From: a virus | Taxonomy: Duplodnaviria > Caudoviricetes | Strand: one strand, 5' to 3' | Length of the DNA: 55,385 nucleotides | IMG/VR virus record: IMGVR_UViG_3300046804_004030 | Location: 1-55,385 of that record | Shown: in pieces, positions 8,161 through 24,733 of the stretch | Numbering within the stretch: the first letter of the stretch is position 1 | Layout: each line of letters begins with the position of its first letter | The notes under the pieces: model-generated | Database searches by the model: none | What the model was told of the DNA's origin: nothing | The model's input: only the letters and a program-made list of their open reading frames with translations | Translations under genes and position numbers: made by a program

Positions 8161-8829
8161 GCGTTGGTTGCAGGTTGTCCACCGGTTCCCCGGCACCAGA
8201 ATTGTAGCACCTTTTGTCCGCACAGGTGTCCGCACAAATCCGAGGCCCCTCACCCCAAGCGCGGCGGGGACAGACAGGGCATCCCAAGCAGAGATTGACA
8301 GGGGAGTGGTGGCTCTCTGGGCTCCGGGCCTGCTCCTGCACCGGGCAGGTTCTTGCGTCGGCAGGAATCTATAAGACCACGACCGGACAAGTCCTCATGG
8401 AAATACCGGAAAAAATTTCAGCCCAGCACTTCTAGCAATTCCAGAATCTTGAACTTTTTGTTGGTGGGAGCTTTGTGGAAGCTGCCGGGGGTTGTGATGG
8501 CTTATTTGTGATGTGCGTGGGTTCACCAATTAAAGCGAAGCCGAAAATGATGGAGGAGCGTGACAACTTTCAAAACAAAGTGGCTTGTAGCGACTAGGGG
8601 AAAACCGGCGTTGGACTAATTTGTATGTCAAGTAAAATATAAGGAGTCTTTGTGGGAAAGGGGAAAAAACCTCGGAAGGACGGGGTGCCAACTACCGGCT
8701 CCAGGGATACCCCACCCCGGCCAACTTACCGGCCGAAAGTGTAAACTAACGGCCGACTGGTAGTTTACATTTAACGCCTAGTTTCCTGACGAAGCTGCCA
8801 GCTCACAGCGTAAGGTTGCGCAACGATCA

Positions 8830-8925
8830 TAAAAGGAAGGGCGAGTAAAAGGAAGCCGGCAACATTAACGGCGAGACTAGAAAGTTTCACGATAGAAAGG
8901 AAGGTTAGAAAGGAGGATAGAAAGG
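8830..8925. repeat. six TA(G)AAAG(G)-type short repeats
   Basis: Copies at 8830, 8846, 8878, 8893, 8906, 8918. Confidence 0.6.
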
Positions 8926-8945
8926 GAGCCTAAGGTTAGGCTCCC
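8921..8945 (-). terminator. probable intrinsic terminator
   Basis: GGGAGCCTAA/TTAGGCTCCC inverted repeat followed by TTTCT on minus strand, just after the stop of 8960..9658. Confidence 0.65.
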
Positions 8946-8959
8946 GGTTAAGGTTAAGG

Positions 8960-9658
8960 TCAATCGGTCAGCGAGTCGCTCAGATGCACAGTCTGACCGT
9001 TGATGTAAGCGTAACGACCCGACGCTTCAGCCAGTGCACCCAACAGGGTGATGTTGGCTTGCTGTTCATTCTGAAGACATTTCCAAGACTTTAACTTCTC
9101 GCCAATGGCGGCAATGGTTGGATTGCCCATGGCCTGCAGGATACGGAGCAATGGGAGTCCCTCGCCAGCGGCCATGCTCGGCACCCTGCCCTCCATGCCG
9201 TGGATGAGGCGCAGCATGAACTGAGCAGAGGGGCGACCGCCTGCCTGAGGCGTGGGGATCGGCTGCGACAGCCGGTCTAGGTCGTTTGGGCAGGCTGCCA
9301 GTGACCACGGGAGGGGTGGCAGGGTGACGGTCACGCCGTCAACCGTACGGCGGCGCACCTTCCTCTCGCGGGGGGCACTGACAGGCAGGCTGAAGCCGAT
9401 ACGCTCAGCCGCTGCGACGACAGCCGGCGACCATTCCAGCGCCACACGGGAGGGTCCAGAGACGACCTTGCCGCCACCCTTGCCACTGGCTGGAATGGTT
9501 TGGTAGTCCATGTCTGCGAAGGGGTCGCCTTCAAGGTCTGAGGGGTCAGCCTGAGGGGTCTGCGCCACGATCGGCGGCTGCTCGGCCGCCTGCTCGGCCG
9601 CCTTGATGATCCGCACCGGACCGGCGGGGGTGGATTGGGAACGCTTGCGAGTTGCCAT
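8960..9658 (-). CDS. hypothetical protein with low-complexity N-terminus
   Basis: 232-aa ORF with CCAACC leader, own promoter-like sequence and terminator. Confidence 0.7.
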   Translation of the reverse strand: MATRKRSQSTPAGPVRIIKAAEQAAEQPPIVAQTPQADPSDLEGDPFADMDYQTIPASGKGGGKVVSGPSRVALEWSPAVVAAAERIGFSLPVSAPRERKVRRRTVDGVTVTLPPLPWSLAACPNDLDRLSQPIPTPQAGGRPSAQFMLRLIHGMEGRVPSMAAGEGLPLLRILQAMGNPTIAAIGEKLKSWKCLQNEQQANITLLGALAEASGRYAYINGQTVHLSDSLTD

Positions 9659-9717
9659 GGTTGGAACTTGTAAAGGGAACGCCGGGGGGAGCCTATGGCT
9701 CCGCCACCGGTTCGCAC

Positions 9718-9745
9718 ACTATACAACCAAACCAGCAGGATGCAA
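9718..9745 (-). promoter_or_regulatory. putative sigma70 promoter
   Basis: Minus strand TTGCAT-N16-TATAGT upstream of 8960..9658. Confidence 0.45.
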
Positions 9746-10162
9746 CGGTCCAAGCGCCCAATACTTTATAGATTCTGCGATCAGTGAACCTATCACCTCA
9801 CCTTAGGCGCAGCCAGTATCGGCAGCGAAGCGGAAACTGTAACTTACCTGCCAGGCAGTAAAGTTAAGCTATCTCCACTGTAGGTTACGCTCGATTGTAA
9901 CTGTAACCTCGCGCAGTGTCACCGCGTTACAGTTACGCTAGCCTGTCAGACTTTATAGGTTAGCCTCTCACCTTAGCCTGTAACGTTGCCGTTGTTAGTT
10001 GTAGTTGTTAGCTTAGGATTGCGGCTCGGATAGTGACACCAACACTTCGCACCTTAGTCTGTAAGTTACCGTGCCAGTCTGGCAGGTTAGCTTGCGTCGC
10101 AAGTTACCTATAGTTTAGTTTAGTTTGCATGTTGCTCGACTTAATTAAGTCCCCAGGATAGG

Positions 10163-10547
10163 TAACATTTAAGATACTTAGCAAGATGCCGCATGTTAGT
10201 TAATCTTACAACTTAGCTAACATTTAAGATGGCAGCTCAGATGTTGCATGTTAGTTAATTCGACAAGTCAGCTAACATTTAAGATATCCAGGAGATCACC
10301 GCTATTTAGTTAATCTGACAAGTTACCTAACATTTAAGATACTGGGCTAATCGTTGCATGTTAGTTAATCTGACAGATTAGGTAGCATTTAAGATTCCCA
10401 GGGAATCGCTGTTAGTTAGTTAATGTGTCAAGTTAGCTAGTGTTTAAGATAGTTAGCTAATCGTTGTATGTTAGTTAATCCTGCAAGTTAATTAGCTATT
10501 AAGATAGTTAGTGAGTCCTTGTTAGTTAGTTAATCGAGCAACTTAGT
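10163..10547. repeat. 7 tandem 55-bp units with invariant TTAAGAT and TTAGTTAAT boxes
   Basis: Unit starts at 10163, 10218, 10273, 10328, 10383, 10438, 10493; exact 55-bp period with no indels. Confidence 0.95.
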
Positions 10548-10611
10548 TAGTGTTCCTGGGCTGGTTAGTTGGCTACTAGCTTGGTTAGCTAACGGTGCTA
10601 GTTAGTTAGCG

Positions 10612-10835
10612 TGAATGCCAGTTAGTCAATGATGAATGTTAGTTAATGATGAATGCAACTTAGTCAGTAGATGAATGGCCTTAGTCAGTGAATGAATGCA
10701 GTTGGTCATGAATGGCAGTTAGTCAGCATGAATGGCGTTTTAGTAAGTGAATGGCTTTTGTAGGTGAATGGCCATTCAAGCAGTTATGAATGGCCTTTGT
10801 TAGTTAGCTATGAATGGCAGTTACTCATGAATGGC
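10612..10835. repeat. about 12 TGAATG(GC) repeats at 16-24 bp spacing, iteron-like
   Basis: TGAATG at 10612, 10633, 10650, 10672, 10693, 10709, 10729, 10748, 10765, 10787, 10811, 10828; many followed by TTAGTCA/TTAGTTA. Confidence 0.9.
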
Positions 10836-11312
10836 AGTCTCGTCCCTGCGGTTCCTATGTAAGTCAAGGTGAATGCAGTTATCAACTGGCTTCTTTTTGT
10901 TTTCTCTGTGAAGCTGCACAGCCTCATCGAAGCACTTAACCAGGAACCCTCGTTTCTTACCAGAGCCACACACCAGGAAGTTAGGGTTAATGATGTGATA
11001 CTTATCTCTTGTTCTGTAGTCAATGAATGGCAGCATTAGTTCTTCCTCCTTGAGGCGTTTAAGTGACAGAACAACGTGATTAGCTTTCTTTTCAATCAAG
11101 TCAGCAACAGCGGCACAGGTAGCTCTGCATCTACCACTGCGCCAGTCAGTCAATGAAATGAACGCAAGTAAGACAGTAATGTCACGATGTTGAATAGCAC
11201 CAGAAGCTGCCAAGTTAACCAACCTAGAAAGCTCAGCAGCGCCAATACGAAAGAAGTTACTTGAGTCATCTTCAAAGCTTTGTTCGTTAGCAGGTGGTGG
11301 ATTGTCAGTCAC
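10821..11312 (-). CDS. winged-HTH protein, RepL-like replication initiator candidate
   Basis: TVLLAFI, TCAAVADLIEKKANHVVLSLKRLKE (HTH), YHIINPNF..CG as in RepL-type proteins. Confidence 0.5.
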   Translation of the reverse strand: MTDNPPPANEQSFEDDSSNFFRIGAAELSRLVNLAASGAIQHRDITVLLAFISLTDWRSGRCRATCAAVADLIEKKANHVVLSLKRLKEEELMLPFIDYRTRDKYHIINPNFLVCGSGKKRGFLVKCFDEAVQLHRENKKKPVDNCIHLDLHRNRRDETAIHE

Positions 11313-11602
11313 CTGGAAGGCCTCCTCAGGTAGGGTGGATTGTTAAGGAACACAACAGCCCAGTCATACCAATGAGTCTCATAGTGCTCATGGGTGAGAC
11401 TGAGTCAATGTAGCCCCTGCTCAGCCTAGTGAGTCACTCAACGTTTTACGCGCCACTCTTATTCTCTTAAATAGTTAACAGACAAACGGCCTGGGGGCCT
11501 CCTTAACGGTGGTCGGGCTGACCTTTCTCAGATTGGTCGTGCAGTCAGTGGGTCAGGGAAGTAGCGAAACGCCTGACCCAGTTACCTATAAACTCTGGCG
11601 CC

Positions 11603-12427
11603 TTAATCAACTTCGGCTTCTTCGATAGCCGCTAGCAGCTGATCCACACCGAGAGCATTGCCCTGTAAGTTTTTACCGACCTCAGCTAGCTTTGCGGCAG
11701 AATTAAGTAGCGAAGGCAAGTCTCTGGTGTCTAGGTCCTGGTCACTATCCAGCATGTTAGTTAGCTTGCGGTTTGCCAAGTAGGCAATACGTGCAGCACT
11801 TAAGCTAAGCTGCTGACCTATCGTTTCCTGTTGCTCACGGTACTCCTCTAGCTTCCTAAGATGGAGCTTATGACGCTCTCCCTCCACCTCAGCCATCCGC
11901 TTGCTAAGCTGGTACCTGTCGAAGTCAGCCGCTCTCTGTAACCAGTTGTTACGTGTTGCGATCTTACGAACCTTATCTAATCCTAAATTTGTAATCTGCG
12001 ATACATATGTTAGTGTACGCCCCCCTCCACACCTAACAAAACAACTGAACAATTCAAATTCTTTGTCAGTCTCAGTTGGTGCAAGGACACTATTTTTAAG
12101 CCAAGTAGCATTAAGGTTAGGGGACCTGTCGGTCTGGTTGGTTAGGTTTTGAGGTTCCGAGAAGGTGTTGCTTTGGTTAACGGCATTTTCTACATAGCTG
12201 GAGGTACTAGTCAGTGAGTGGGTGGGTTCCTGGGGGTCTTGGTCAACTTCTGTAAACTCCTCTTCTACATACTCAATAGTGTCCTCAAGGTTAGTATCCT
12301 CATCATCTTCATACTCACCGAACTCATTTACCTTTCTAAGCCTGCCATCGGCGAACTTGGTGGCGTCCTTTTCAATACGTTCGGCGGAATCCAGTAAGTC
12401 TTCAAAGTCAAAATCTGAAGCCGGCAC
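11603..12427 (-). CDS. terminase small subunit-like HTH protein
   Basis: ETDKEFELF...GGGRTL..VS...VRKIATRNNWLQRAADFD followed by coiled coil, a pattern seen in phage TerS-like proteins; acidic N-terminus. Confidence 0.5.
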   Translation of the reverse strand: MPASDFDFEDLLDSAERIEKDATKFADGRLRKVNEFGEYEDDEDTNLEDTIEYVEEEFTEVDQDPQEPTHSLTSTSSYVENAVNQSNTFSEPQNLTNQTDRSPNLNATWLKNSVLAPTETDKEFELFSCFVRCGGGRTLTYVSQITNLGLDKVRKIATRNNWLQRAADFDRYQLSKRMAEVEGERHKLHLRKLEEYREQQETIGQQLSLSAARIAYLANRKLTNMLDSDQDLDTRDLPSLLNSAAKLAEVGKNLQGNALGVDQLLAAIEEAEVD

Positions 12428-12488
12428 GGTTTGTTAGCGATGGCCTCAGTATTCTATCGGCTCAGTTAGCTAAACGTCAATGGATACT

Positions 12489-12522
12489 AAAAAACCCGGC
12501 GCGGTTTGTGGACCGGCCGGGT
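12489..12522 (-). terminator. intrinsic terminator ending the small-gene operon
   Basis: ACCCGGC...GCCGGGT hairpin with T-tract on the minus strand. Confidence 0.8.
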
Positions 12523-12558
12523 CAGTTATTTATTGAAACTCAACAAATAAATCTAAAG

Positions 12559-12822
12559 TTACGCAGACTGCACAGCAGCTAAGTCGTCTTTCAAGATAAG
12601 GCGAAGTGCAGTATCAATGTGACTATCATTAAGATACTTATGTAGGTCTTTAACGAAACCTTCTGGCAGATACTTACGGGAAGCATGAAATACATCCCAG
12701 CGCCAGCGTTCCTTGCTAAGCCCATTGTCAACATAGGCTTGCAGTGTTGAGTCAGGATGAGCTTCCTTAACTTTGGCAATGGCGTCAGTCAGTGCCACGA
12801 GATGTTCGGACTTGATCTTCAT
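12559..12822 (-). CDS. hypothetical protein
   Basis: RWRWDVF...YLNDSHIDTALR; coding-like. Confidence 0.7.
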   Translation of the reverse strand: MKIKSEHLVALTDAIAKVKEAHPDSTLQAYVDNGLSKERWRWDVFHASRKYLPEGFVKDLHKYLNDSHIDTALRLILKDDLAAVQSA

Positions 12823-12994
12823 TGTTAGTAAATGAGCTTGGTTGGTTTGCGCCTATGCTTAGGCTTAGTCTTTTTGACTACTTTGTAGCATAATCCCTTA
12901 CCTGGAATGTCAGCTACAGTAACCTTACGGTCACTACTTAACCGGCTCTCAATGGAGTCAAGTTCATCCAAGTTTCGGATGGGTCTCCAATTAG

Positions 12995-13219
12995 TCATTG
13001 CTCCTCCTTAACAGTAAAGAACACCTTGCCATTTAGTGTGACGCCATCACGCCAAGTCAAGTAAATACAACTGTTATTAAGCAAGCACTTAATAAAGTAT
13101 TGACCGATGTTATCTTTGACAACTTGGTAAGCCAACGTATCGGCATACACTGCCTTTCCTTCGTCAACAGCTTGGCGAATAGCGTTGGCTTCGCTTGGCA
13201 AGTAAATGTAGTCGTTCAC
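12995..13219 (-). CDS. hypothetical protein
   Basis: GTGA overlap with upstream gene. Confidence 0.6.
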   Translation of the reverse strand: MNDYIYLPSEANAIRQAVDEGKAVYADTLAYQVVKDNIGQYFIKCLLNNSCIYLTWRDGVTLNGKVFFTVKEEQ

Positions 13220-13704
13220 TTGGTAAACTCCCTCAGTTGGCTTTTGATGTCAGCTACCTTGGCTTCCAGCTCACTTAGCTCAGTCATCTTCTGAACCACC
13301 TCCTCCAACGTGTAGTCAGTGCGGAAGTTGGCCAAGTCAGGCAAGCCAGTGATCGACGTGCCATCACAGTTACCATCCAGCCGGCACACGGTAAACTCCT
13401 GCTTTACATAGTCAACACTATACTCACTCAACCTGTAAGTGGTATCTACCGTTGCATACACACTGTAAGCTGAGTAGTTAAATACAATCCTGAACTCAGT
13501 ATCTAATCCCTCTCGGCTAATCAGTGGATCAATAACAGCAGCTACCTGCTTCGTCCATTGCCTGTAAGGCGTGACTTTAATCACCTTCTTGCCCACGAAG
13601 GGCTGAAGCAACTTAGCGAACTCAGCTTGAAGTTCGTTAGCCTTAGCATTAACTTTGTTGCGGGTGTCAACTTTGCGTTGCAGTCGGTCAGTGTCGATGT
13701 TCAT
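13216..13704 (-). CDS. hypothetical protein
   Basis: 162 aa, CCAACC-rich leader. Confidence 0.7.
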   Translation of the reverse strand: MNIDTDRLQRKVDTRNKVNAKANELQAEFAKLLQPFVGKKVIKVTPYRQWTKQVAAVIDPLISREGLDTEFRIVFNYSAYSVYATVDTTYRLSEYSVDYVKQEFTVCRLDGNCDGTSITGLPDLANFRTDYTLEEVVQKMTELSELEAKVADIKSQLREFTK

Positions 13705-13734
13705 GTCAGTTAGTCAGTTGGTTGGGTTAGTTGG

Positions 13735-13911
13735 TCAGACCGCGAGGCGCATGAACTTACGCTTAAGCGAAGTCAGCTTGACACGCAGTTTGGCGTGACG
13801 CTTGAAGCAATTAGTCAAAACGACATGGTTATCGGTCAACTCAGTTACGCGCCACCGAACACCAGTAGAATCTTGCCAAACAGTGCTAAGCAGGGAATTG
13901 TCAGTTTGCAT
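13735..13911 (-). CDS. small hypothetical protein (58 aa, not in ORF track)
   Basis: Read by hand: MQTDNSLLSTVWQDSTGVRWRV...RLAV; fills the gap between neighbours. Confidence 0.55.
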   Translation of the reverse strand: MQTDNSLLSTVWQDSTGVRWRVTELTDNHVVLTNCFKRHAKLRVKLTSLKRKFMRLAV

Positions 13912-13938
13912 TGGTAATCACCTAGTTGGTTAAGTTGG

Positions 13939-14199
13939 TCAGAAGCGAATAGCAGTCTTTATGCCTTGCTCAACGTAGCGATCAAGCTCCGCGAACAAGT
14001 CCTCCTTAGCAGCGGTTACTGTCGGATAATACTTAGGTGCCTGCCGCCTGAACTCACTGAAGAAGTGAGCGTAGCTAAAGCGGTCGCCTAGAGTGCTATA
14101 AAGCACTGCCGCCAACTTAGTGTCAGAGCCGTCATCCATAAAGACGTGCTCAACATAGCCAGCAGCTTCTGCGACACGTTGAGTGGTGAACTTGGTCAT
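13939..14199 (-). CDS. hypothetical protein
   Basis: Start taken at MTKFTT. Confidence 0.6.
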   Translation of the reverse strand: MTKFTTQRVAEAAGYVEHVFMDDGSDTKLAAVLYSTLGDRFSYAHFFSEFRRQAPKYYPTVTAAKEDLFAELDRYVEQGIKTAIRF

Positions 14200-14331
14200 C
14201 TTCGTTGTCCCTTGGGTAGTAATCACGGTCGGTGAAGTAAGCGTTCGATACTTCGTCAGCCATACAGTCAGAATCCAGCCAAGGAAACAAAGCGGTTTCC
14301 TGAGCCAGCTGTTCACAGTCAATGCTCATGA

Positions 14332-14628
14332 TTAAAAAGTTTGCACGATCAAGTTAAGTTCGTCCTTCAGTCGGTCAAGATCACTGTTAAGAACAAAGCC
14401 GCCTTCTTCCTCAGCATGGCAGAGGATGCTACGAAGTTGGCGAATGTCATCTTCGCTAGTCATCGTGATGTTAATAGTGATTGAGACCTGAGACTTAAAA
14501 GTGATTGCCATTGGTTTGTAAGTTAAGGATTTAGTGAGCCAACACGGAAGGGAATTTTGCTTAATAGTCAGTCGATGCTCGTCATCAAAGATGGATGGAG
14601 CATTAGTCCCAAGGAAAACGTCGGTCAT
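14332..14628 (-). CDS. hypothetical protein; N-terminus duplicated in 15961..16275
   Basis: MTDVFLGTNAPSIFDDEHRLTIK; alternative start at MAITFKSQ. Confidence 0.5.
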   Translation of the reverse strand: MTDVFLGTNAPSIFDDEHRLTIKQNSLPCWLTKSLTYKPMAITFKSQVSITINITMTSEDDIRQLRSILCHAEEEGGFVLNSDLDRLKDELNLIVQTF

Positions 14629-14647
14629 ACGGAAACGTAGATAGTCT

Positions 14648-14854
14648 TCATTGGTTGGTTGGTGAAGGCGATTGGCTAGCAGGTTGGGCAACGTACACAG
14701 TCGGCGACCACACTCGGTCAGCCTGGACAGCATTGTTATCAGCTACCCACTGCTTGAACTCAGTGAGCACTGGCAGGTTACTGCAATCCTTGGGACACTT
14801 AACTTCCCCGCAGTACATCGAAGTACAACAGGTTGGGTAGGCACGAGTTTGCAT
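14648..14854 (-). CDS. small Cys-rich protein
   Basis: CCTSMYCGEVKCPKDC; CCAACC leader. Confidence 0.6.
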   Translation of the reverse strand: MQTRAYPTCCTSMYCGEVKCPKDCSNLPVLTEFKQWVADNNAVQADRVWSPTVYVAQPASQSPSPTNQ

Positions 14855-14882
14855 GGTTGGTCAGCGATGGGGTGACAGTCAG

Positions 14883-15107
14883 TCAGGCGTGAACGTAGTC
14901 TTGGTGGCCGATGCTGAAGCCATCAGCCATGTAGATACCAATGACCTCATCTTGGTCATCAATAATGCAGGCGTTGGGATAGAAGATCCACCAGCTACCG
15001 ATGTTGTTCATTCTGTCAACTGCCTGACGAAAGGTAGCGAAGTCACCTTCGCGAACATAGTCGTCAAGGAACTTGGCTACGCCGTCAGCAATGCGAGTTG
15101 CGGTCAT
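14883..15107 (-). CDS. hypothetical protein
   Basis: Codirectional ORF. Confidence 0.55.
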   Translation of the reverse strand: MTATRIADGVAKFLDDYVREGDFATFRQAVDRMNNIGSWWIFYPNACIIDDQDEVIGIYMADGFSIGHQDYVHA

Positions 15108-15180
15108 AACGTCGTCACCGCAGAAGAAGCATAAAGTGAACATGACTGATAAGTTAGTGAAAGTGATTGGTCAGCGCTGC

Positions 15181-15552: not shown

Positions 15553-15586
15553 GTTGGTTAGGGGCGAAGTTTGTGAAGGTTGTTGG

Positions 15587-16275: not shown

Positions 16276-16280
16276 GGCGA

Positions 16281-17459: not shown

Positions 17460-17570
17460 GTCAGTGAACTCCGTTGGTTGGTGAGCGCAACTAACCACCA
17501 ACTAAGTCGGTGACTCAGCTGGTTAGTTAGCTACAGGCAGGAGAGGCTACACCTCTCCCCCATGCCCACA

Positions 17571-17627
17571 ATTATACAGCATCACGGCCCTTAGTGCCAT
17601 CCTTTGCTTCGATTCTGTAACATTAGC
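17571..17627 (-). promoter_or_regulatory. sigma70-type promoter with upstream GCTAATGTTACA box
   Basis: TATAAT at 17571-17576, TGGCAC 17 bp upstream, box at 17616-17627. Confidence 0.7.
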
Positions 17628-17899
17628 TATGGCCGGTTTCTAAATAGCTAGATCGGCTCTGGTCCGCAGTAGAACCGCCTAGGCTTAGCGTTTCTGCTCA
17701 GCGAAAGGGCCTGCTGGCCTTAGCGTTCTGCGGCCCTGTGAGCAGCCTGGCCCCAGATCCGCAGTCAGCTACCGATCAGCTCAGTCAGCCGTCTTCCCGG
17801 CCCGGCTACCGACCACTGGCAGCGTCATTAGCGATCGACTCGCGTAGTCAGCTGGATAGTGACAGCTGCAGCAGGGCCAGACCACATGACGCCGGTTAG

Positions 17900-18178
17900 T
17901 CAGCGACGCACCGGCTCACTTTCCATGATCTCGACCTCACCCTTCCAGGTATTGACCAAGATCATTGCCGCACCGAAGTCAATCTTGCGGTCAGCCAGCA
18001 GCTTGCCACTTGAGTTACGGCACTGATAAACGAACTTATCAGACTTACCTGTCGTATCAGCATTGCGAGTAATTTGATGCGACAGGTCAGTTACCTTGTC
18101 GTAATTAGTGGCCTTGTAGATACCGTGCAGCCACTTGAAACCAGCTTGGTTGCACTTGACATTAACTTGTTCAGTCAT
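17900..18178 (-). CDS. hypothetical protein
   Basis: Start overlaps upstream stop. Confidence 0.6.
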   Translation of the reverse strand: MTEQVNVKCNQAGFKWLHGIYKATNYDKVTDLSHQITRNADTTGKSDKFVYQCRNSSGKLLADRKIDFGAAMILVNTWKGEVEIMESEPVRR

Positions 18179-18674
18179 GGGAAGTAAAGTGAACGATGAT
18201 AGTTTGACACCAATAAAGTGTACCACTATTGTCGGGTACGCAGGTAGCCGCAGTCAAATAGTCAGGAAGCCCAGGTAAGTGAACGTCCATGACCGAAGAA
18301 AGAAACACAGGGCCAACTTTCTCAGCCCCGAGCGCAAATAAGCTGCGCCCTCCCTGAATAATTAGATAGCCGATCCAGTTCAGGTAGTAACCGCGCTCCT
18401 CGTCATCAGCAATGAATCCAGGATTGTCAGATACCATTGCCGATGCCCAGTCAGCCGGGACAACATACTGACGCTCTGCCGTGCCAACCTCCTCGACGAG
18501 GTAGGCAGTGAAGGCCCTGTACGCAGCCAGAATCTCCCGCTCAGTGAGGTTATCAACTGAATCAGTGAACAACTCGGCTGCGTAGGCAGTGAATAGCTCA
18601 CGCAGCCTTTCCGTTTCCTCAAAGTCACCAAACTCCTTGGTAACCAAGTCAGCAAACGGAGTATTCTGGATCAT
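18171..18674 (-). CDS. hypothetical protein
   Basis: ATGA overlap; 167 aa. Confidence 0.7.
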   Translation of the reverse strand: MIQNTPFADLVTKEFGDFEETERLRELFTAYAAELFTDSVDNLTEREILAAYRAFTAYLVEEVGTAERQYVVPADWASAMVSDNPGFIADDEERGYYLNWIGYLIIQGGRSLFALGAEKVGPVFLSSVMDVHLPGLPDYLTAATCVPDNSGTLYWCQTIIVHFTSHD

Positions 18675-19213
18675 GGAAAATAGCCATCGTGCCAGCTTTG
18701 TGATTCCTCAATCTGAGCCAGGAACCTGTCGCACATTAGCTTAGCCTTCTCGCCCGACAAAGTTTGTGGATCGCTGTCAAAGTTGAGTGGTCCGTGGTAG
18801 TCAGCTAGAGACTTGTAGGCAGATGCCAGGGTAACAGGGTCGCTAGATAGCAAGTCAACAACAAGCTTATCAAAGCTGCTGCCAATGAACTCAGCAACAC
18901 TACTAAGGCTGGCGCAGTTACCAAACCATGCACATAAGTTAGGATGAAATCTGTTGTCGCTTACCCCGATCCATCCGAGCGCACTACTGGATTGGTCGTC
19001 AACAACTGACATAACCTGCTTAACCGCAGTAAGCCGCTCAAGCCGAATGCTGTAAGCTAGCCTGCTCTCAGATGAGTCATCTGAGTCGGTCATCACAATT
19101 AGCTCGGGGCAGTAGATACCACGCCTGTCAACCAAGACAAGCGCGCCACCATGTTCGTAAGGATCGACGTCACCGATGTTAGCGACGCACCAGTAAGAAG
19201 GTTGCTGAGTCAT
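18671..19213 (-). CDS. hypothetical protein
   Basis: NIGDVDPYEHGG...YHGPLNFD; 180 aa. Confidence 0.7.
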   Translation of the reverse strand: MTQQPSYWCVANIGDVDPYEHGGALVLVDRRGIYCPELIVMTDSDDSSESRLAYSIRLERLTAVKQVMSVVDDQSSSALGWIGVSDNRFHPNLCAWFGNCASLSSVAEFIGSSFDKLVVDLLSSDPVTLASAYKSLADYHGPLNFDSDPQTLSGEKAKLMCDRFLAQIEESQSWHDGYFP

Positions 19214-19508
19214 TGTTGGTTAGGATTGAAGTCAGGGTCAACTTTCTGAATCAGTGCAGCAACTGCTTGACCAAGCAGGTCAATGTTGTCAAGCGCCTTG
19301 CTTAACTTGGCTTCCAGGTCACTGATGCGACCATCAAAGTCAGCAAGCTCTTGCACTAGCTCGGGGAATGGTCAGGCTGCTCGTCGCCAAGTGTGTAACG
19401 ACGATGCCAGCAAACCATAGTGCCGACATTGTACCACTCACGCGAGCTCTCAGCAAAGTCATCTTGCCTGATCTCGATAGTCAGGTTGCCGTGCTTGATG
19501 GTTTCCAT
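19210..19508 (-). pseudogene. apparently truncated gene followed by an out-of-frame orphan tail
   Basis: 19508-19356 encodes METIKHG...CWHRRYTLGDEQPDHSPS; the -1 frame continues FPELVQELADF...NPNQQ to 19210. Confidence 0.35.
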
Positions 19509-19513
19509 GTCAG

Positions 19514-19681
19514 TTAGTTGTTGTAGGGATTGGCCCAGGAAGTCACCTGCTGGTCAGTAATCAGCCCGTCACGGTGCAGGCAGTCAATGAAAATGCACCA
19601 TGCCTCGCCAGCAGCTGGCTTGTCAGTCTTGTCGAAAGTAAACCGTTGATTGAACTCTCGTCTAGCTTGCTTGTAAGTCAT
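19514..19681 (-). CDS. small hypothetical protein (55 aa, not in ORF track)
   Basis: MTYKQARREF...EAWCIFIDCLHRDGLITDQQVTSWANP; ATGA overlap. Confidence 0.65.
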   Translation of the reverse strand: MTYKQARREFNQRFTFDKTDKPAAGEAWCIFIDCLHRDGLITDQQVTSWANPYNN

Positions 19682-19965
19682 CGGAGATCATCGTTGTTTT
19701 CTTCAGCCAGCCAGTCATAAACCCAGCGAGCAAGCTCAGCGAGGCTGCCGTAACGAGCCTCGCGTTCGACCATTGTCCAGTAAGTCAGCGAAGTGTACTT
19801 AACAAACCACTGCTCATCGTTAAGGACAACGAAACAAGCTGGCTTCTTATCGTCGGCATCAAACCAGTCAGGCTCAATGCAGTTTTCTTCGGCAATGCGC
19901 GAAGCGTAGAACTCAGCGCATGGAACTTCCTTAGCAGAAGCAAGAAAGCTATCGAAGTCAGTCAT
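19678..19965 (-). CDS. acidic hypothetical protein
   Basis: Overlapping operon packing. Confidence 0.65.
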   Translation of the reverse strand: MTDFDSFLASAKEVPCAEFYASRIAEENCIEPDWFDADDKKPACFVVLNDEQWFVKYTSLTYWTMVEREARYGSLAELARWVYDWLAEENNDDLR

Positions 19966-20266
19966 TGTCATCATCAACAGTGAGGACGTAGTAGTAGCCA
20001 ACATGATCGCTACCGCGAGCAACTACCTTCATCTTGGACAGGAAGCCAGTCGAGAAAGGCTTGTCAGTGAACCGCTCCATCCACTTAGTCAGTGCAGCAT
20101 CGTGACCGTCAGTACTGCTGTATGGCGCAGGAATCCTGACCTGCCACTTAGTTTCCGAGTCGCGCTGGTGAGTGGCGAAGTAGTGAAGCGAGCCGCGATA
20201 GTAGCGACACTCAGTCTTGACACAGACACCGACAAGTAAGTCAGTGATCGGCGGAATGGTTTGCAT
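19958..20266 (-). CDS. hypothetical protein
   Basis: CCAACCAACCAACGACC leader. Confidence 0.7.
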   Translation of the reverse strand: MQTIPPITDLLVGVCVKTECRYYRGSLHYFATHQRDSETKWQVRIPAPYSSTDGHDAALTKWMERFTDKPFSTGFLSKMKVVARGSDHVGYYYVLTVDDDND

Positions 20267-20295
20267 GGTCGTTGGTTGGTTGGGGTGGGGCGAAG

Positions 20296-20529
20296 TCAGG
20301 CCAGATGACCGAAGGGAACTGGGATTGGCGGCTTCTCAATAGTCGGCCGCACTACCTTGCTAACTGATCTGTCTTTCCAGTTAGCGCAGCAGCGCGTACT
20401 GATGTAGTACCTTGCCGCAGGATCAGCCATCTGATACTCAGTTAGCATCTTTCTGGCTAGCAAGCGATACGGAAACTCATCGACGGTCTCCAGATAGCGA
20501 CTGTCTTTGCGTTGGATGTAGTAACTCAT
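20296..20529 (-). CDS. hypothetical protein
   Basis: YIQRKD..LETVDEF...YYISTRCCANW. Confidence 0.7.
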   Translation of the reverse strand: MSYYIQRKDSRYLETVDEFPYRLLARKMLTEYQMADPAARYYISTRCCANWKDRSVSKVVRPTIEKPPIPVPFGHLA

Positions 20530-20738
20530 TTGTCAAGCTCAGTCAGCTTGTCAACGTTGATGACTTGCTCAAGATCAATGCCGTTGGTCACTGTCAGATC
20601 GAAACGATCATTGTCAGTACCATCGCGAAGATTCTCAAGTTCTTCCTCAGTCAACTTCTCAACATTGATAAGAAAGGCAGTATCAAGTGAGAAGTAGCTG
20701 CCATCAGTGGACAGCACAACGTAGTCAGCGAAGTCCAT
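20526..20738 (-). CDS. small highly acidic protein
   Basis: D/E-rich 70 aa; first gene after the 20.8-kb promoter. Confidence 0.65.
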   Translation of the reverse strand: MDFADYVVLSTDGSYFSLDTAFLINVEKLTEEELENLRDGTDNDRFDLTVTNGIDLEQVINVDKLTELDK

Positions 20739-20805
20739 AGTGAGCGAAGTAGGTGACTTAGTTAGCGAGTGCGACTGCGGGATACACTCTCCCCATCGCC
20801 CTCTA

Positions 20806-20862
20806 ATTGTACCGCAACAGGGCTAAATGGTCAAATTCGTGTTGCGTAGTTGTAACATTAGC
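20806..20862 (-). promoter_or_regulatory. sigma70-type promoter with upstream GCTAATGTTACA box
   Basis: TTGACC (20829-20834)-N17-TACAAT (20806-20811); box at 20851-20862. Confidence 0.8.
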
Positions 20863-20920
20863 GGCTGGGCTGATCCTACATACTTTTACCGGACTCTTCC
20901 CGTAGCAGAAGCTGAGTCGC

Positions 20921-21526
20921 TTAGTCAGCAAGAGATCCCAATTGCTCAGCCATTGCCTCTGCGATACCCAGATAAGTTCTCGACCTATTCTTCTGACGAT
21001 CTTTTCCTGGTGCTTCCCAGTGAACCTTAGCTTTCTCGGATGAGTGCATACCGATCATCCGCTCAGATACGTTATTTGACGCACGCAGCAAGGGAAGCCC
21101 CTTTAGCCACAAGCATGTCCCTTTCCTTTCTGGATGGCCATGGTGGAAAGGTTGAATCTTTTGCGTATAAGCCGTCTGATTACTTAGCCGCTCTCTTGCG
21201 TAGCCGTGCATGATTGGATTCTCAATGCAGATCCTTGGACAGGGATGATCAAGGAATAAGTTAAAGAAGTTGACCGCATCAATCATCTTCTCCCATCGCC
21301 CACTTACTCTCTTGAGCCATTGCACACCGCTCTGGGCGAGGTAGGTACAAGGAGGAAAAGCGATAATCAGGTCCCAGTCTTGACTAAGTAAGTCACGAAC
21401 GTCGCCAACGTAGTGAGGCCCCGGCGACTCAGTTTCAAGAATGTCACACGAGATGGCATCATGACCGCGCTTAATAAACGCATCACGCACTCTGCCACTA
21501 AACTCGCAAGCAACTAAAACCTTCAT
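20921..21526 (-). CDS. short DNA cytosine-5 methyltransferase-like protein
   Basis: VLVACEFSG (motif I variant), DAISCDI, DLIIAFPPC (catalytic PC), IENP, RSRTY.GIA.AMA.Q. Confidence 0.8.
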   Translation of the reverse strand: MKVLVACEFSGRVRDAFIKRGHDAISCDILETESPGPHYVGDVRDLLSQDWDLIIAFPPCTYLAQSGVQWLKRVSGRWEKMIDAVNFFNLFLDHPCPRICIENPIMHGYARERLSNQTAYTQKIQPFHHGHPERKGTCLWLKGLPLLRASNNVSERMIGMHSSEKAKVHWEAPGKDRQKNRSRTYLGIAEAMAEQLGSLAD

Positions 21527-22038
21527 GAGTCTCCTGGTAGGGTTGGCAGCTTTCTACGCTTAGCCAGCGTAGCAACAATCTCTTCCATTGTCATCTTATT
21601 CATACAGTCCCACTCATTAGTTTGTATCACCTTCCACAAGCAAGGTGGCATACTTTTCTCAGAGAAGCTAAACTGGTAAAAGTCACCCAGTCCGTCAAGA
21701 CACAGAACAAACTGCTTGGCTCGCTGCTTCGCTTCGTACGCTAGATAGTGAAGCTCGATCCACTTGAGCAACTTAAGTTGCGTACCTTCGTAGCGATCGA
21801 CCTTGTGGTCAGGAACAGCGTTCTCCCAGCCTTCCTCTAGCTTGACTGGTTTGTCATTCAGCTTGGTGCCCTGCTTAGCTGCATACCACTCAAGTACGTC
21901 AACCATCTGTGAGTTATTAGACCACTCAAAGATGTCAGGAGCGATGAAAGCTACCTTGCGACCATTGGCGACAAGGTTGCAAGTATGTCCACCAGGGCAG
22001 CGACGGACACCGCGAACCTCAAGAATGATGTTCCTCAT
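21523..22038 (-). CDS. hypothetical protein
   Basis: ATGA overlaps at both ends. Confidence 0.7.
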   Translation of the reverse strand: MRNIILEVRGVRRCPGGHTCNLVANGRKVAFIAPDIFEWSNNSQMVDVLEWYAAKQGTKLNDKPVKLEEGWENAVPDHKVDRYEGTQLKLLKWIELHYLAYEAKQRAKQFVLCLDGLGDFYQFSFSEKSMPPCLWKVIQTNEWDCMNKMTMEEIVATLAKRRKLPTLPGDS

Positions 22039-22538
22039 TTAATAAGATCAGAATACTTAGGTAGTGATTCAAGCTTGATAGCTGGTGACTTAGCTTGACG
22101 CCAAGCGACGATTGGCGAGTGGTGCCATGTGCCAAGCCACACTGAAGCGAGCTTAGTTGCTGGCACCTCGTCAATGTAGTCATCATTGACACGTTCCCAC
22201 TTATAGAAAACGATGTCAACGACAGCGCCAATAGATGCTTGGCCAGCTAAGTCCCAGCATACAAAGTCAATAGCGTTCAACTTTCTGAACGAAAGATTCT
22301 TGTACCAGCTATCGGCAGTTACCGTAAGAGCCCGCTCACTAATGAACTTAGTGTGCTGAGCCTCTAAGCGTGGCGCAGAAAAGTAACTTTCATCAGAATG
22401 TGGGTCGTAGCCTGCTGGTAGTAAGCAAACCTTGGCAGCCCGGAAAGCCAAGCGTTCCTTGTTACCAAGAAAGCTCTTGACTTCCTGAAGCCGCTCAACA
22501 GTTTCCTTGCGCGTGAAGCGAAGTGAGTTACGCCGCAT
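22035..22538 (-). CDS. hypothetical protein
   Basis: 167 aa, operon packing. Confidence 0.6.
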   Translation of the reverse strand: MRRNSLRFTRKETVERLQEVKSFLGNKERLAFRAAKVCLLPAGYDPHSDESYFSAPRLEAQHTKFISERALTVTADSWYKNLSFRKLNAIDFVCWDLAGQASIGAVVDIVFYKWERVNDDYIDEVPATKLASVWLGTWHHSPIVAWRQAKSPAIKLESLPKYSDLIK

Positions 22539-22776
22539 ACTCAGTTACACAGTCAGGGCGACCGAGCTTAGTGGCGAAGACGTGAGCAATGGACCTTCCA
22601 GCCGATGGACATAAGTCTTCGATCTTGCCTAATCTAAGATCGCTTGACCAGTGAGCTATCGGACCGAGAAAGCCACCGAGCCTCCATGTATCTAGGTGAG
22701 TTAGGCCATACCCGTAAGCCTGGTACTCCGCCCAAGTAACTAAGCGGCCTGCTTGACTCAGCTTGTAGAGTGGCAT
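22528..22776 (-). CDS. hypothetical protein
   Basis: Operon packing. Confidence 0.55.
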   Translation of the reverse strand: MPLYKLSQAGRLVTWAEYQAYGYGLTHLDTWRLGGFLGPIAHWSSDLRLGKIEDLCPSAGRSIAHVFATKLGRPDCVTEYAA

Positions 22777-22778
22777 AA

Positions 22779-23210
22779 TCAGACTCGGATGTTGTCAAAG
22801 GTCAGGTAAATCTTGCCGTTGTCACCAACGTCAGCATGAATCTCACCATACTTTTTGGCAAGTTTGTCAAGGATGCTGCCTACTTCTTCTGGCCAGTCAG
22901 ACTCCTCCCAGAAGCCGCAGCCATGACCGTTAGCAGTCATGATGAAGTCACGCTCAGTCTGATAGTCACTATTAGCTGTGCCAGTGTAGAAGTCATCAAT
23001 AGATGACCAGTCATCACCGATCTTCTCAGTGATCTCCTTCTCAGCCTCCTCAACGAAAGACTGAAAGCGCCTGCTTAGCTCCTGTAGGGAGTCAGCATCA
23101 ATGTCCTCAGGTGTGTAGTTAGCGTCAAGTGGCTCACCACCTGACTCGTCCGCGTTGTCAGTTTCTGACCAGAGCAGTGTTTCTGCAAGTTGACGAAGTG
23201 ACGGGTTCAT
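22779..23210 (-). CDS. acidic phage protein with DF..T.NGHG.GFW motif
   Basis: ETLLWS, DFIMTANGHGCGFWE, VGDNGKIY. Confidence 0.75.
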   Translation of the reverse strand: MNPSLRQLAETLLWSETDNADESGGEPLDANYTPEDIDADSLQELSRRFQSFVEEAEKEITEKIGDDWSSIDDFYTGTANSDYQTERDFIMTANGHGCGFWEESDWPEEVGSILDKLAKKYGEIHADVGDNGKIYLTFDNIRV

Positions 23211-23434
23211 TGCTCGTTGTTAATAGCTTGGGCCATGTAAACAGTACGGCCAGCTACCGTACACATACCGCAGTCAGTCAGATGAATCAGTCCGCGACGT
23301 TCAAGTGACTTAGCGATCTTGATGCTTAGCCGGTCGGCTGGAACATAGAAGCGAGCGTCAGGATAGGGAGCACGCTGTATGAAGTTAAGCATCTGCCGCT
23401 GCAGATAACCAAGTCCAGCAGTTGGGTTAGTCAT
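23207..23434 (-). CDS. small winged-helix-like protein
   Basis: LQRQMLNF...IAKSLERRGLIHL. Confidence 0.55.
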   Translation of the reverse strand: MTNPTAGLGYLQRQMLNFIQRAPYPDARFYVPADRLSIKIAKSLERRGLIHLTDCGMCTVAGRTVYMAQAINNEQ

Positions 23435-23802
23435 GCAGCCGCCTCGTTAGCTTGCGACTTCTGCCACGAAGCAATCTCTTGGATGCGATCGTGAATCTCG
23501 TTGATGATGTCGTTAGCAAGCTCCTTGCAGTTAGTGCGCTTCATCACCGAACAAGTGAACCATTCGGGATGACCATAGGCACCACCAGTGAAACTGTTGT
23601 CACCAGTCTGGTAGTTCCAGCTAATTGACGCAGCCTCAAAGTCAAAGGTGCAGCCGATAGTTACCTCGATACCAGGAATGTCACCATCACCCGTCTCAAT
23701 CAGCGTGTCAGTGCCGATGTCTTGCTTGAGCCCGCGAAACAGTGAGTAGAGATCCTTGCGAAGCTGAGGAACATCGCCAAGGATAGTCAGATTGCCTTTC
23801 AT
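23431..23802 (-). CDS. hypothetical protein
   Basis: WNYQTGDNSFTGGAYGHPEW; CAACCAACC leader. Confidence 0.7.
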   Translation of the reverse strand: MKGNLTILGDVPQLRKDLYSLFRGLKQDIGTDTLIETGDGDIPGIEVTIGCTFDFEAASISWNYQTGDNSFTGGAYGHPEWFTCSVMKRTNCKELANDIINEIHDRIQEIASWQKSQANEAAA

Positions 23803-23821
23803 GGTTGGTTGCGGTAGTAGA

Positions 23822-24172
23822 TCAGGCAGCGTAGTTACCAAGCTCGAACTCCTGAAGCTCGCCGTGCGCGATAGCAACGCAGGCTCCAGTGATTAGCTTG
23901 CTGCGATTGTTAATCAGCCACTGAGTCTTGAAGGTATCGCGCTCAGGAAACGCTTTCCAGAACCAGTGCGTAGCAAACTCAACGCAAGCGGCTGACGCAA
24001 GCGGAAGGTAGCTGTTGACTGAATGAGCAACAGGCGTAGTTACCTTGTAAATAGACTCAAGCTCACGCCTCAGCGCGTTCCACTGGTTGCCATCGCAGTT
24101 CTCAAGGTAGATAATCAGTGAGTTAAGACAGTCAGCATAAAGCTGCTTGTCGTAGTTAGCGAACGCAGTCAT
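23822..24172 (-). CDS. hypothetical protein (start at MTAFANY)
   Basis: Lies downstream of the extended -10 at 24225. Confidence 0.65.
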   Translation of the reverse strand: MTAFANYDKQLYADCLNSLIIYLENCDGNQWNALRRELESIYKVTTPVAHSVNSYLPLASAACVEFATHWFWKAFPERDTFKTQWLINNRSKLITGACVAIAHGELQEFELGNYAA

Positions 24173-24224
24173 GAAGTTAGCGTTTCGTTGGACAGCAGCG
24201 CAAGGCTTCGCCCGCGCATGACTC

Positions 24225-24233
24225 ATTATATCA
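24225..24233 (-). promoter_or_regulatory. extended -10 promoter TGaTATAAT
   Basis: Perfect TGnTATAAT on minus strand; TGTCACA at 24271 at almost the same offset as the box in the 17.6 and 20.8 kb promoters. Confidence 0.6.
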
Positions 24234-24484
24234 TGTAAGAATCCTGCGCGGTGGATAGTATGAAAAATAGTGTCACACGATCTGCTGCTTAGCAGTCGCA
24301 TGAGTCTCATAGCTGAAAGCCGATGCTCTCAATAGGACCGCCGCAGTGGTCGCAGCGAAGTACGCAGCCAGTGCGATTAACTTGGTCAGTCAGCACACGC
24401 CAGTTCTTACTCAGTGCAAAGTTGCTACGCTCCTTGCCACAGCAGTCAGCGCAAATCTTTCTGCGGTCAGCCGTGTAGACGTAT

Positions 24485-24733
24485 CTAAACCTTTGCTTGG
24501 TTACGAAAATGAGATCGGTTAATCTCAGGGTTTGGGATGCAGTCGTCATCAATACTGTCCTTGATTCGTTTGTAAAGCTTTCTCATTCGTTTCTGACATT
24601 CCTGCCAGGCTTCTTGCTTAGGTGGCTTGTCACCATCCCATAGCATTCCTACATAGTGAGGACCAGCGCGGTAAAGAAACTTGATGCACACAAGAAGCAA
24701 GCGCTTTTCAAAGTTGGAGAACTCCATTGTCAT
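24485..24733 (-). CDS. hypothetical protein
   Basis: Operon packing. Confidence 0.5.
   Translation of the reverse strand: MTMEFSNFEKRLLLVCIKFLYRAGPHYVGMLWDGDKPPKQEAWQECQKRMRKLYKRIKDSIDDDCIPNPEINRSHFRNQAKV

Follow-up and report, generated by a model that had tools for sequence, protein, structure and literature searches.

A one-strand CTGACT-type word laid over a distinct codon style in a 15-kb gene block of an uncultivated phage contig

The virus contig IMGVR_UViG_3300046804_004030 (Duplodnaviria; Caudoviricetes), analysed here over its whole length of 55,385 bases and called the window, is a linear IMG/VR record with a completeness estimate of 56%. Among its gene products are a DnaB-type helicase, a sigma factor, tail-fibre-like proteins, a Rad52-family recombinase and a PD-(D/E)XK nuclease, together with the nucleotide-metabolism enzymes dCTP deaminase, ThyX and dNMP kinase. 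Freshwater metagenomes contain near-identical DNA, and the contig of a relative, 98,730 bases long, is consistent with a genome of about 100 kb. A cyanobacterial host is possible; the top phage matches of the sigma factor are cyanophages, and atlas leads, to be taken as leads only, point to Cyanobacteriota. Between about 9.75 and 24.55 kb lies a block of closely packed small genes (Table 1), in which all open reading frames (ORFs) from 10.8 to 24.55 kb are on the minus strand and encode 50-274 aa. This block is crowded with words of the form STNAS (S, G or C), and the present work concerns the nature of that crowding, which is a one-strand, non-palindromic signal made mostly of sense-strand CTNAC.

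A preliminary description of this DNA, made from its letters, had proposed an STNAS-rich domain of about 16 kb, and such a domain is real. In 1-kb bins the density is 24-54/kb throughout 9-25 kb and 5-18/kb in all other bins, the chance level being 15.6/kb for STNAS and 3.9/kb for each of its four classes (CTNAC, GTNAG, GTNAC and CTNAG). A two-boundary likelihood fit places the domain at 8701-24650, with 538 occurrences in 15,950 nt (33.7/kb) against 429 in 39,435 nt (10.9/kb). The edges originally proposed, 8740 and 24500, agree with this fit to within about 0.2 kb, but the true left edge lies near 9.75 kb, because the GC-rich ORF at 8960-9658 carries no STNAS-type signal; the corresponding fit of the strand-specific form gives 9901-24500, with 16.5/kb inside and 3.7/kb outside. 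The longer form RSTNASY, also said to be enriched, reaches 12-29/kb inside (6/kb in the edge bin at 9-10 kb) and 0-8/kb outside. Long A/T runs, noted as scarcer in the domain, are indeed about six-fold rarer, with 8 runs of A or T of at least five (0.54/kb) inside and 126 (3.18/kb) outside, and G or C runs of that length occur at 0.27/kb and 0.96/kb, respectively.

The four classes do not contribute equally. Sense (minus-strand) CTNAC, which is GTNAG on the plus strand, stands at 15.3/kb in 9-25 kb against 3.7/kb outside; sense-strand GTNAG is at 3.6/kb inside, close to chance, and 2.7/kb outside. Counted on the plus strand of 9-25 kb, GTNAG occurs 245 times and CTNAC 57 times. The two truly palindromic classes rise from 1.8 to 6.1/kb (GTNAC) and from 2.8 to 8.2/kb (CTNAG), which is just 1.6-2.1 times chance. 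In the coding part of the block, the sense-to-antisense ratio is 114:17 for TGACT, 112:13 for CTGAC and 27:1 for GCTGACT, and the bias of CTGACT is about 30:1 (counts in Table 1) at a density about 19 times chance. STNAS and RSTNASY are thus the symmetric-looking shadow of words that occupy one strand.

This asymmetry bears directly on the original reading of the domain as a degenerate palindrome, that is, as many low-specificity sites for a dimeric DNA-binding protein or as the trace left by DNA modification or repair limited to this region. A palindrome must be equally frequent on both strands, and the palindromic-site reading is therefore not supported. It can draw on the mild enrichment of GTNAC and CTNAG, on GTAAC and GTTAC in both orientations at 9.75-10.14 kb, and on the methyltransferase-like gene (PHROG 757) within the block. 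The bulk of the signal is nonetheless one-stranded, and the palindromic classes are only z 2-4 above synonymous and strict shuffles; the strict shuffle, which keeps amino acids, codon usage and dinucleotides, leaves GTNAC at 67 in genes against 56.4 (z 2.3) and CTNAG at 91 against 79.7 (z 2.0). The words also show a periodicity of four bases, a lag unfit for a dimer on B-DNA. The methyltransferase-like gene, with 575 confirmed relatives, occurs widely in viral contigs, is often found in unrelated phages without a block-like density, and is among the three block genes of lowest word density (5.0/kb). Such sites, or such a footprint, are hardly credible as the source of the signal. What stands of the proposed regional mark written through coding sequence is its regional extent and its presence in genes and spacers; the notion of a footprint on double-stranded DNA is not supported, the strands being so unequal.

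The core of the word is RCTGACT, and the flanks of CTNAC add merely R at -1 and T at +1. Flanking positions are weakly conserved, the best being T at -3 (46%) and T at +1 (54%), the commonest 10-mers of the block are seen just three times each, and the majority of the approximately 180 CT[GA]AC sites lie within genes. On these grounds (weak flanks, 10-mers in at most three copies, sites mostly in genes), operators of the stoperator type were rejected. Word sites show no regular spacing, the coefficient of variation of their gaps being 1.27 with an excess at lag 4 only. At this 4-base lag ACT, GAC, CT and AC recur, as in CTGACTGAC, CTAACTAAC and CCAACCAAC; ACT is followed by ACT 2.7 times as often as expected at lag 4 and 0.29 times at lag 3.

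Part of the density stems from a codon style peculiar to the block. Among synonyms, and over 3,524 codons in the block and 6,244 in the rest, the share of ACT is 0.56 versus 0.27, of GCT 0.50 versus 0.33, of GAC 0.67 versus 0.44 and of AAG 0.83 versus 0.57. The preferred codons (ACT, GCT, GAC, AAC and AAG) are T7-like. AGA and AGG together make up 0.27 of the arginine codons in the block and 0.40 in the rest, which fits a tRNA-Arg(TCT) that serves the non-early genes. Dinucleotide ratios differ as well, with AC at 1.21 versus 0.80, TA at 0.79 versus 0.52 and CT at 1.36 versus 1.10.

Codon usage alone was nevertheless rejected as the cause of the motif excess. In 32 ORFs chosen by hand rather than taken from a gene caller (11,958 nt), 359 STNAS are observed, against 218.7 expected from a codon shuffle, 261.0 from a within-gene synonymous shuffle (z 8.9) and 282.9 from the strict shuffle (z 8.6), so that the excess survives each of the codon and shuffle nulls, a check that the preliminary description had proposed. 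Per kilobase the ladder runs from 10.9 in genes outside through 18.3 (codon shuffle), 21.8 (synonymous) and 23.7 (dinucleotide-preserving) to 30.0 observed, and the excess divides into about 39% codon usage, 19% amino-acid order, 10% junction dinucleotides and 33% that these terms leave unexplained. For CTNAC, 159 occurrences face 71 by codon shuffle and 109.2 by the strict shuffle (z 8.7), and sense GTNAG is observed 42 times against 37.6. CTNAC exceeds its own shuffles in 27 of the 32 genes.

The top sense words, relative to synonymous shuffles, are TGACT (96 against 46, z 10.6), CTGAC and CTGACT (46 against 17), and CTGACT is raised in frame 0 (18 against 6.8 expected) as well as in frame 1 (28 against 9.8). 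Coding of protein repeats was rejected as the source of the word in the window, where CTGACT is spelled by at least 30 different tripeptides, none of them used more than four times. Inside the block only, LT, TD and AD dipeptides reach about 1.5 times expectation each, and 17 of the 32 stop codons are TGA-C or TAA-C. The signal had been described as present in genes and intergenic DNA alike, and this holds: spacers and promoter gaps (1,393 nt) contain 57 STNAS against 28.0 by dinucleotide shuffle (z 6.1) and 30 CTNAC against 10.0, with 2 GTNAG. In the array region at 9750-10820 there are 66 STNAS against 22.2 expected, and the arrays hold 33 CTNAC against 9.8, their copies being non-independent. 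The enrichment is therefore neither lost under codon control nor absent from intergenic DNA.

Codon junctions show where much of the style is written (a slash marks the junction). Outside the block T is strongly avoided before A, with -1-frame TAA at 94 against 157 expected, and inside there is no such avoidance (137 against 125). Over 24553-55385 and 1-8253, the avoidance of NNT/ANN junctions is seen also in -1-frame TAG (46 against 86 expected). Within the block, T/GAC (134 against 76) and T/GAG (86 against 53) are favoured, T/GAT (40 against 34) and T/AAG (57 against 56) show no clear preference, and T/GAA is depleted (17 against 28). In the -1 frame TGA occurs 277 times in the block against 192 by synonymous shuffle (z 9.3); no off-frame excess of TAG is found there.

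These figures allow the view that no word is selected, and that CTGACT is only a by-product of codon usage and codon-pair bias tuned to host translation and frameshift-proofing. Nulls built from codon usage, amino-acid order and junction dinucleotides reproduce about two thirds of the excess; CTGACT strings together the five dinucleotides that are favoured most (CT 1.36, TG 1.31, GA 1.14, AC 1.21); homopolymers are depleted six-fold, -1-frame TGA is abundant, and third positions within the word are no more conserved than those of the same codons elsewhere (14/93 against 57/284, p 0.36). Against this, CTNAC exceeds even the strictest null, is enriched three-fold in spacers that hold no codons, and CTGACT is raised in either possible frame. 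Preference does not extend to all junctions that create stops, T7 lacks the word, and the excess falls in the -1 frame when the refined ambush model, as described in PMC5909447, stresses the +1 frame. A pure by-product is accordingly held to be unlikely.

The block recurs in relatives. Three related loci (L010, L011 and L013) and the longer contigs G001 and G002 contain orthologues of the boundary genes at 72% identity, which mark an equivalent right edge, and at least 20 block genes have syntenic orthologues in relatives at 40-84% protein identity, their order kept. The relative's block shows the same tendencies at about half the density, with STNAS at 18 versus 11/kb and CTNAC at 7.2 versus 3.2/kb. 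TGACT (z 4.1) and CTGAC are both among its five commonest pentamers, with sense-to-antisense counts of 52:15 and 51:12, and CTGACT is divided 11:3 in the first 9.9 kb, which is the block, and 14:12 in the other 41.7 kb. Homopolymers are likewise depleted there, and codon usage in G001 shifts in the same direction (ACT 0.39 versus 0.22). In a closer relative, L107, which shares 92% identity in one protein, the pattern is at full strength (CTNAC 10-21/kb).

At conserved four-fold codons, the window and G001 share the third base in a fraction of 0.43, where the marginals predict 0.30. Synonymous sites are thus largely randomised between the lineages, and therefore the bias must be actively maintained. 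At aligned Asp codons T/GAC co-occurs in the window and G001 with an odds ratio of 3.1-4.0, judged no stronger than the background conservation of third-base T (2.4). Relative to L107, third positions within the word have changed in 12 of 95 cases and others in 243 of 1016 (p 0.011), but with the same codons outside the word as control the difference is gone, as given above. Single sites are apparently not detectably conserved, and the signal appears to be a preference for density.

Recurrence in relatives also bears on the proposal that the block is foreign, either acquired from a phage lineage of another signature and not yet ameliorated, or joined by chimeric assembly. Its dinucleotide signature is unlike that of the rest of the contig and resembles that of T7. 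Yet the same block occupies the same place in the relatives, with orthologous genes at the identities stated, and a relic that was not maintained would have faded as synonymous sites were randomised; contigs of the source sample bridge both edges (7335-10109 and 24141-26999), although, being from the same sample, they are not independent. Foreign origin and chimerism are largely refuted and must be considered very unlikely.

Outside this phage's kin the pattern is scarce. Among 97 other fetched loci, most of them found through the PHROG 757 gene, the best 3-kb window has a median of 5 CTNAC/kb, and a density near that of the block occurs only in relatives of this phage and in pentapeptide-repeat genes of L024. 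The latter is an unrelated phage contig of 36% GC, in which three paralogous repeat genes (8440-8700, 8925-9200 and 13565-13800; GCTGACTTG.. or GCTAACTTG.., A-D/N-L-x-G) adjoin its PHROG 757 methyltransferase-like gene. The word patches of L024 are pentapeptide-repeat coding. A search for related loci with two block proteins found no relative.

Table 1. Positions of the block, its genes, promoters, leaders and repeats in the window
Feature	Position	Strand	Remarks
Compositional block	9750-24552	-	About 32 small genes and a 1.1-kb non-coding tail; sense CTNAC about 15-16/kb
Coding part of block	10861-24552	-	CTGACT 61 sense, 2 antisense in 13.7 kb
Two genes beyond the right edge	24485-25418 (24485-24733 and 24708-25418)	-	Signal ends here
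274-aa protein, acidic N-terminal half	11603-12427	-	Residues 118-269 match PHROG 6299 'terminase small subunit', E 1.3e-11 (weak)
201-aa protein	20921-21526	-	PHROG 757 'DNA methyltransferase', E 5e-54
Predicted sigma-70-type promoter TTGACC-17-TACAAT	20806-20834	-	Promoter scan; in gap 20267-20920; preceded by GCTAATGTTACA
Predicted sigma-70-type promoter with TGcTGTATAAT	17571-17600	-	Promoter scan; preceded by GCTAATGTTACA
Predicted sigma-70-type promoter TTGACG-18-TAGAAT	12451-12480	-	Promoter scan; just downstream of GC hairpin and T-run
Leader/spacer of CCAA/CTAA/CTGA 4-mers, CCAACTAACCCAACCAACTGACTAACTGAC then ATG	13705-13734	-	No Shine-Dalgarno sequence; stops in three frames
Similar spacers	13912-13938, 15144-15180, 15553-15586, 15926-15960, 17056-17096	-	From the sequence
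GTAAC/GTTAC-rich stretch, both orientations	9750-10140		8 GTNAC in 9751-10000
Tandem array, 55 bp x 7	10159-10550		72-73% matches; units carry GTTAGTTAAT and AACATTTAAGAT
Array of about 12 units of 17-21 bp, TGAATG(G)C and AGTTAGTCAG	10602-10860		Sense: CTGACTAACT and GCCATTCA; overlaps 3' end of ORF 10821-11312
tRNA-Arg (anticodon TCT)	2117-2190	-	Sole tRNA on the contig, outside the block

The proteins of the block are mostly without recognisable family. A scan of 15 of them against PHROGs and/or Pfam leaves 13 unassigned, NCBIfam gives no match for five, and a PDB sequence search with two returns nothing below E 0.05; the 274-aa protein has no Pfam, NCBIfam or PDB match. Internal promoters of the sigma-70 type (Table 1) suggest that host RNA polymerase transcribes the block. 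The 12-mer GCTAATGTTACA lies upstream of both strong internal promoters at a similar distance (17601-17640 and 20840-20880, minus strand) and could be the site of a shared regulator. The GC hairpin and the T-run behind it (about 12489-12521) were read by eye from the sequence and are not a call of the scan. Use of the word as a -35 element was rejected, as 170 [CT]TGAC sites are accompanied by 0-4 -10-like TANNNT per spacer length against 2.2 expected (16-18 nt), and the scan finds 13 promoter-like sites against 15.6 in shuffles.

The word often stands immediately upstream of start codons, as in CTGAC ATG. Most genes at 12400-24552 have no Shine-Dalgarno sequence, and the 10-40 nt before their ATG are C/A-rich and G-poor (for example CCAACCAACCAACGACC and CTAACCAAC); the starts listed just outside the block are mostly without a Shine-Dalgarno sequence too.

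A rival idea is that CUGACU/CUAACU is an RNA mark of early transcripts, the target of an RNA-binding protein or endoribonuclease, of phage or host, that would set the lifetime or translation of early messenger RNAs (mRNAs) as a class. In its favour, the word is restricted to the sense strand of a single gene block, occurs within and outside the coding sequence of the presumed transcripts, and is frequent right before starts and at stops. A density that is conserved when positions are not suits a class mark, and T4 RegB, as presented in PMC1702504, is a precedent. However, no candidate nuclease or RNA-binding protein came to light, 13 of the 15 block proteins scanned belonging to no family, and the block edge is not at a visible promoter. 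An RNA mark of this kind is a possible but doubtful explanation.

Downstream of the last block gene lies the non-coding DNA in three parts, the GTAAC/GTTAC-rich stretch and two arrays. The 55-bp array has a sense-strand RNA fold z of -2.2. It is not present in relative G001, and in other samples its copy number or arrangement varies, with joints that skip 55 and 131 bases and one that goes back 200. Transcribed as part of an early operon, it could serve as an RNA decoy. The 17-bp array is matched in G001 (L105) at 5004-5204 by a TGAATG(G)CA core followed by AGTTAG-like words at 17-bp spacing, so that about 12-13 units are kept between phages whose neighbouring proteins are just about 60% identical. 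It is probably an array of cis-acting sites, for example iterons or a site of the pac or partition type; its neighbours include the 274-aa protein with the weak match to a small terminase subunit, and a 163-aa protein also adjoins the arrays. The minus-strand ORF 8960-9658 is flanked by the arrays and by a strong hairpin terminator at 8924-8945; it is of about 60% GC, whose 232-aa product has no PHROGs, Pfam or NCBIfam match; a GC-rich stretch is found at the equivalent place in G001, at about 3000-4100.

Read depth changes in this region. In Logan contigs of the probable source sample, depth is 74-75 for the pieces 7335-10109 and 10080-11383 and 27-38 from 11969 rightwards, and to the left of 7335 it is about 43 as estimated from the bin mean. 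The earlier proposal that the marked DNA may be the first-entering or terminally redundant part of the genome can be set against this interval of about two-fold depth, roughly 7335-11968, which overlaps just the left 2.2 kb of the block. Alternative contig continuations exist at 9830-9837 and at 11466, the latter with the same sequence in two samples (X1 and X3). The depth step could be either a collapsed direct terminal repeat of about 4.6 kb holding the arrays or a module shared with a second genome.

Another rival reading takes the word as a polar DNA signal, Chi-like or translocase-orienting, which a nuclease or helicase entering from a genome end near the arrays would read on one strand, so that DNA beyond the terminus is protected or processed. 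The strand bias and density of the word suit such a role, as do the depth step, if it is a collapsed terminal repeat, and the position of the block beside non-coding DNA that is rich in repeats and conserved in a relative. RecBCD meets Chi from its 3' side, and an enzyme moving in from the left would likewise meet 5'-CTGACT-3' from the 3' side. The depth step can also be read as the shared module, to which the alternative continuations point; the sites, one per 120-210 nt, are far denser than any known Chi, and the word excess lies largely in codon-junction choices, which a cause at the level of translation explains too. A polar DNA signal is thus decidedly unlikely.

A few general searches complete the description. 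Megablast of two 4-kb pieces of the window against phages gave no match, an Rfam scan at gathering thresholds gave 0 matches, and a scan of genome contigs with the sigma factor found none. Across the whole window ATCGAT, ATGCAT and GCATGC have 0 copies against 9-13 expected, and ATTAAT (1 against 8.3), GAGCTC (2 against 12.3) and GTTAAC (3 against 12.4) are strongly under-represented. The absence or rarity of these 6-bp palindromes looks like restriction-site avoidance and could aid host identification.

The explanation favoured here, with slightly better than even confidence, is that the block has a sense-strand, expression-linked style together with an oriented word. In this explanation 9.75-24.55 kb would be an early, host-takeover-type gene block of a freshwater phage with a genome of about 100 kb. 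Its style, confined to the sense strand, comprises T7-like codons, few homopolymers, tolerated TpA at junctions and T before GAC or GAG, with leaders that lack Shine-Dalgarno sequences and consist of CCAA/CTAA/CTGA 4-mers carrying stops in all frames. RCTGACT, with CTAACT, is an oriented word on top of this codon style. Selection would act on the sense strand, presumably through transcript and translation, and not on sites in double-stranded DNA. About two thirds of the excess may be due to selection on codons and codon context tied to early expression, and the last third may reflect selection that directly favours a high density of the oriented word without regard to single sites. What the data show is a strand-specific signal that does not depend on reading frame, occurs in spacers, outlasts all shuffles and recurs in relatives; the early class of the block, action at the RNA level and the host are inferences. 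A more specific claim is that RCTGACT is a true oriented signal, selected for density, by which a clade of freshwater phages of roughly 100 kb labels its host-takeover block on the sense strand or in transcripts. It would be either an RNA class mark that times decay or translation of early messages, in the manner of GGAG for RegB but written through coding sequence, or a very dense Chi-like polar word beside a genome end. This claim is only tentative and falls well short of even confidence.

Several observations weigh against the favoured explanation. A general effect of sense strand, transcription or coding was rejected, as other gene blocks show no bias of the word: the minus-strand genes at 24.5-45 kb have 35 sense and 27 antisense copies, and the plus-strand gene block of the contig has 5 and 7. 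Across the 32 genes, the excess over synonymous shuffle does not follow the fraction of preferred codons (rho 0.14, p 0.45). Pure selection for hidden stops was rejected on the depletion of T/GAA, the near-expected T/GAT and the lack of a TAG excess, and general selection of this kind fits the data only in part. Selection for unstructured mRNA was rejected as well; over 120-nt windows, native sequence has an advantage in folding over synonymous shuffles of 2.9 kcal/mol in the block (24 of 28 genes) and likewise of 2.3 kcal/mol outside it, so that mRNA folding in the block is no weaker than in shuffles. The designation 'early' is drawn from gene content and promoters. At the right edge of the signal, about 24.55 kb, genes follow one another without a gap and the scan calls no promoter, and the block is not obviously a transcription unit. 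Because all block genes are on one strand, readings at the RNA and DNA levels are indistinguishable. Finally, codon style alone does not make the word, because T7 has a similar style without an excess of it.

Sequence styles specific to a region of a phage genome are usually credited to codon adaptation, and here a proper null explains only part of the pattern. The remainder is a short oriented word, far above chance and strongly strand-biased, in an early-type block and maintained in diverged relatives. If the oriented-signal reading is true, selection for a word of 6-7 nt leaves a visible imprint, over 15 kb, on synonymous sites and dipeptides as well as on stop contexts and spacers. Should something read the word, this would be a compact and testable class label on early phage genes or terminus-adjoining DNA, and early modules of uncultivated phages could be recognised by it. 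Should nothing read it, the case is a warning that apparent saturation with a palindrome can be the shadow of a one-strand bias in codon context. A full-text search of the literature for a strand-specific over-represented oligonucleotide in the early region of phage genomes returned nothing relevant, and no wider claim is made from it.

Known systems resemble the block in part. Cyanobacterial HIP1 (GCGATCGC) is a true palindrome found genome-wide in its host. Like HIP1, the block word is short, very dense and written through genes; unlike HIP1, it is asymmetric and regional, and HIP1 itself has 0 copies in the window. The earlier comparison was thus right that the signal is analogous to HIP1 but not HIP1, and wrong in treating the word as palindromic, since it is one-stranded. 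Chi (GCTGGTGG) and KOPS are short, asymmetric, oriented oligomers that occur genome-wide and follow the direction of replication. The block word shares with them its asymmetry, its over-representation against shuffle nulls and its strong strand bias, but it does not extend beyond 15 kb, has a density 10-50 times higher, and leaves other gene blocks without bias.

Other systems are oriented with transcription. The stoperators of cluster A mycobacteriophages (PMC9283540) and the intergenic repeats of phage TLS (PMC11447400) are described as asymmetric, repeated and transcription-oriented sites of 13-21 bp, a few dozen per genome and mostly intergenic, whereas the block word has a 6-7-nt core with weak flanks and many more sites, chiefly in genes, and no repressor for it came to light. 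T4 RegB is reported to target GGAG in early mRNAs (PMC1702504); by analogy, the block word is a short sense-strand word of presumed early messages, often at translation initiation regions, but it extends throughout coding sequence and is not concentrated at ribosome-binding sites. The ambush hypothesis concerns out-of-frame stop codons, and its refined model is outlined in PMC5909447. The excess of off-frame TGA and the rarity of slippery homopolymer runs agree with it, but the block excess is in the -1 frame only, concerns TGA before C or G only, and is present also in non-coding DNA.

T7 offers the closest match in composition, with nearly the same codon preferences and dinucleotide signature and with STNAS at 22.8/kb, above chance. 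According to PMC3874151, the 36 EcoP15I sites of T7 are all in one orientation, which likewise places an asymmetric short word on one strand only. Unlike the block, T7 has no excess of the word over synonymous shuffles (CTNAC 161 against 154.9, TGACT 49 against 38.4, CTGACT 13 against 13.0) and no regional peak of it; its orientation bias comes without over-representation, while the block word is far above chance and confined to one block. Mioduser, Goz and Tuller (2017; PMC5683454) reported that early and late genes differ in codon usage in 50% of the 14 phages that they studied. The block is similar in having its own synonymous usage, and the contig carries a tRNA-Arg(TCT) for a codon that is rarer in the block. 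It differs in that an oriented 6-7-mer and non-coding DNA share the bias, that one third of the excess survives the controls, and that the temporal class is presumed from the block's content. The pattern fits a combination of this known, class-specific codon usage with a strand-skewed oligomer selected for its density.

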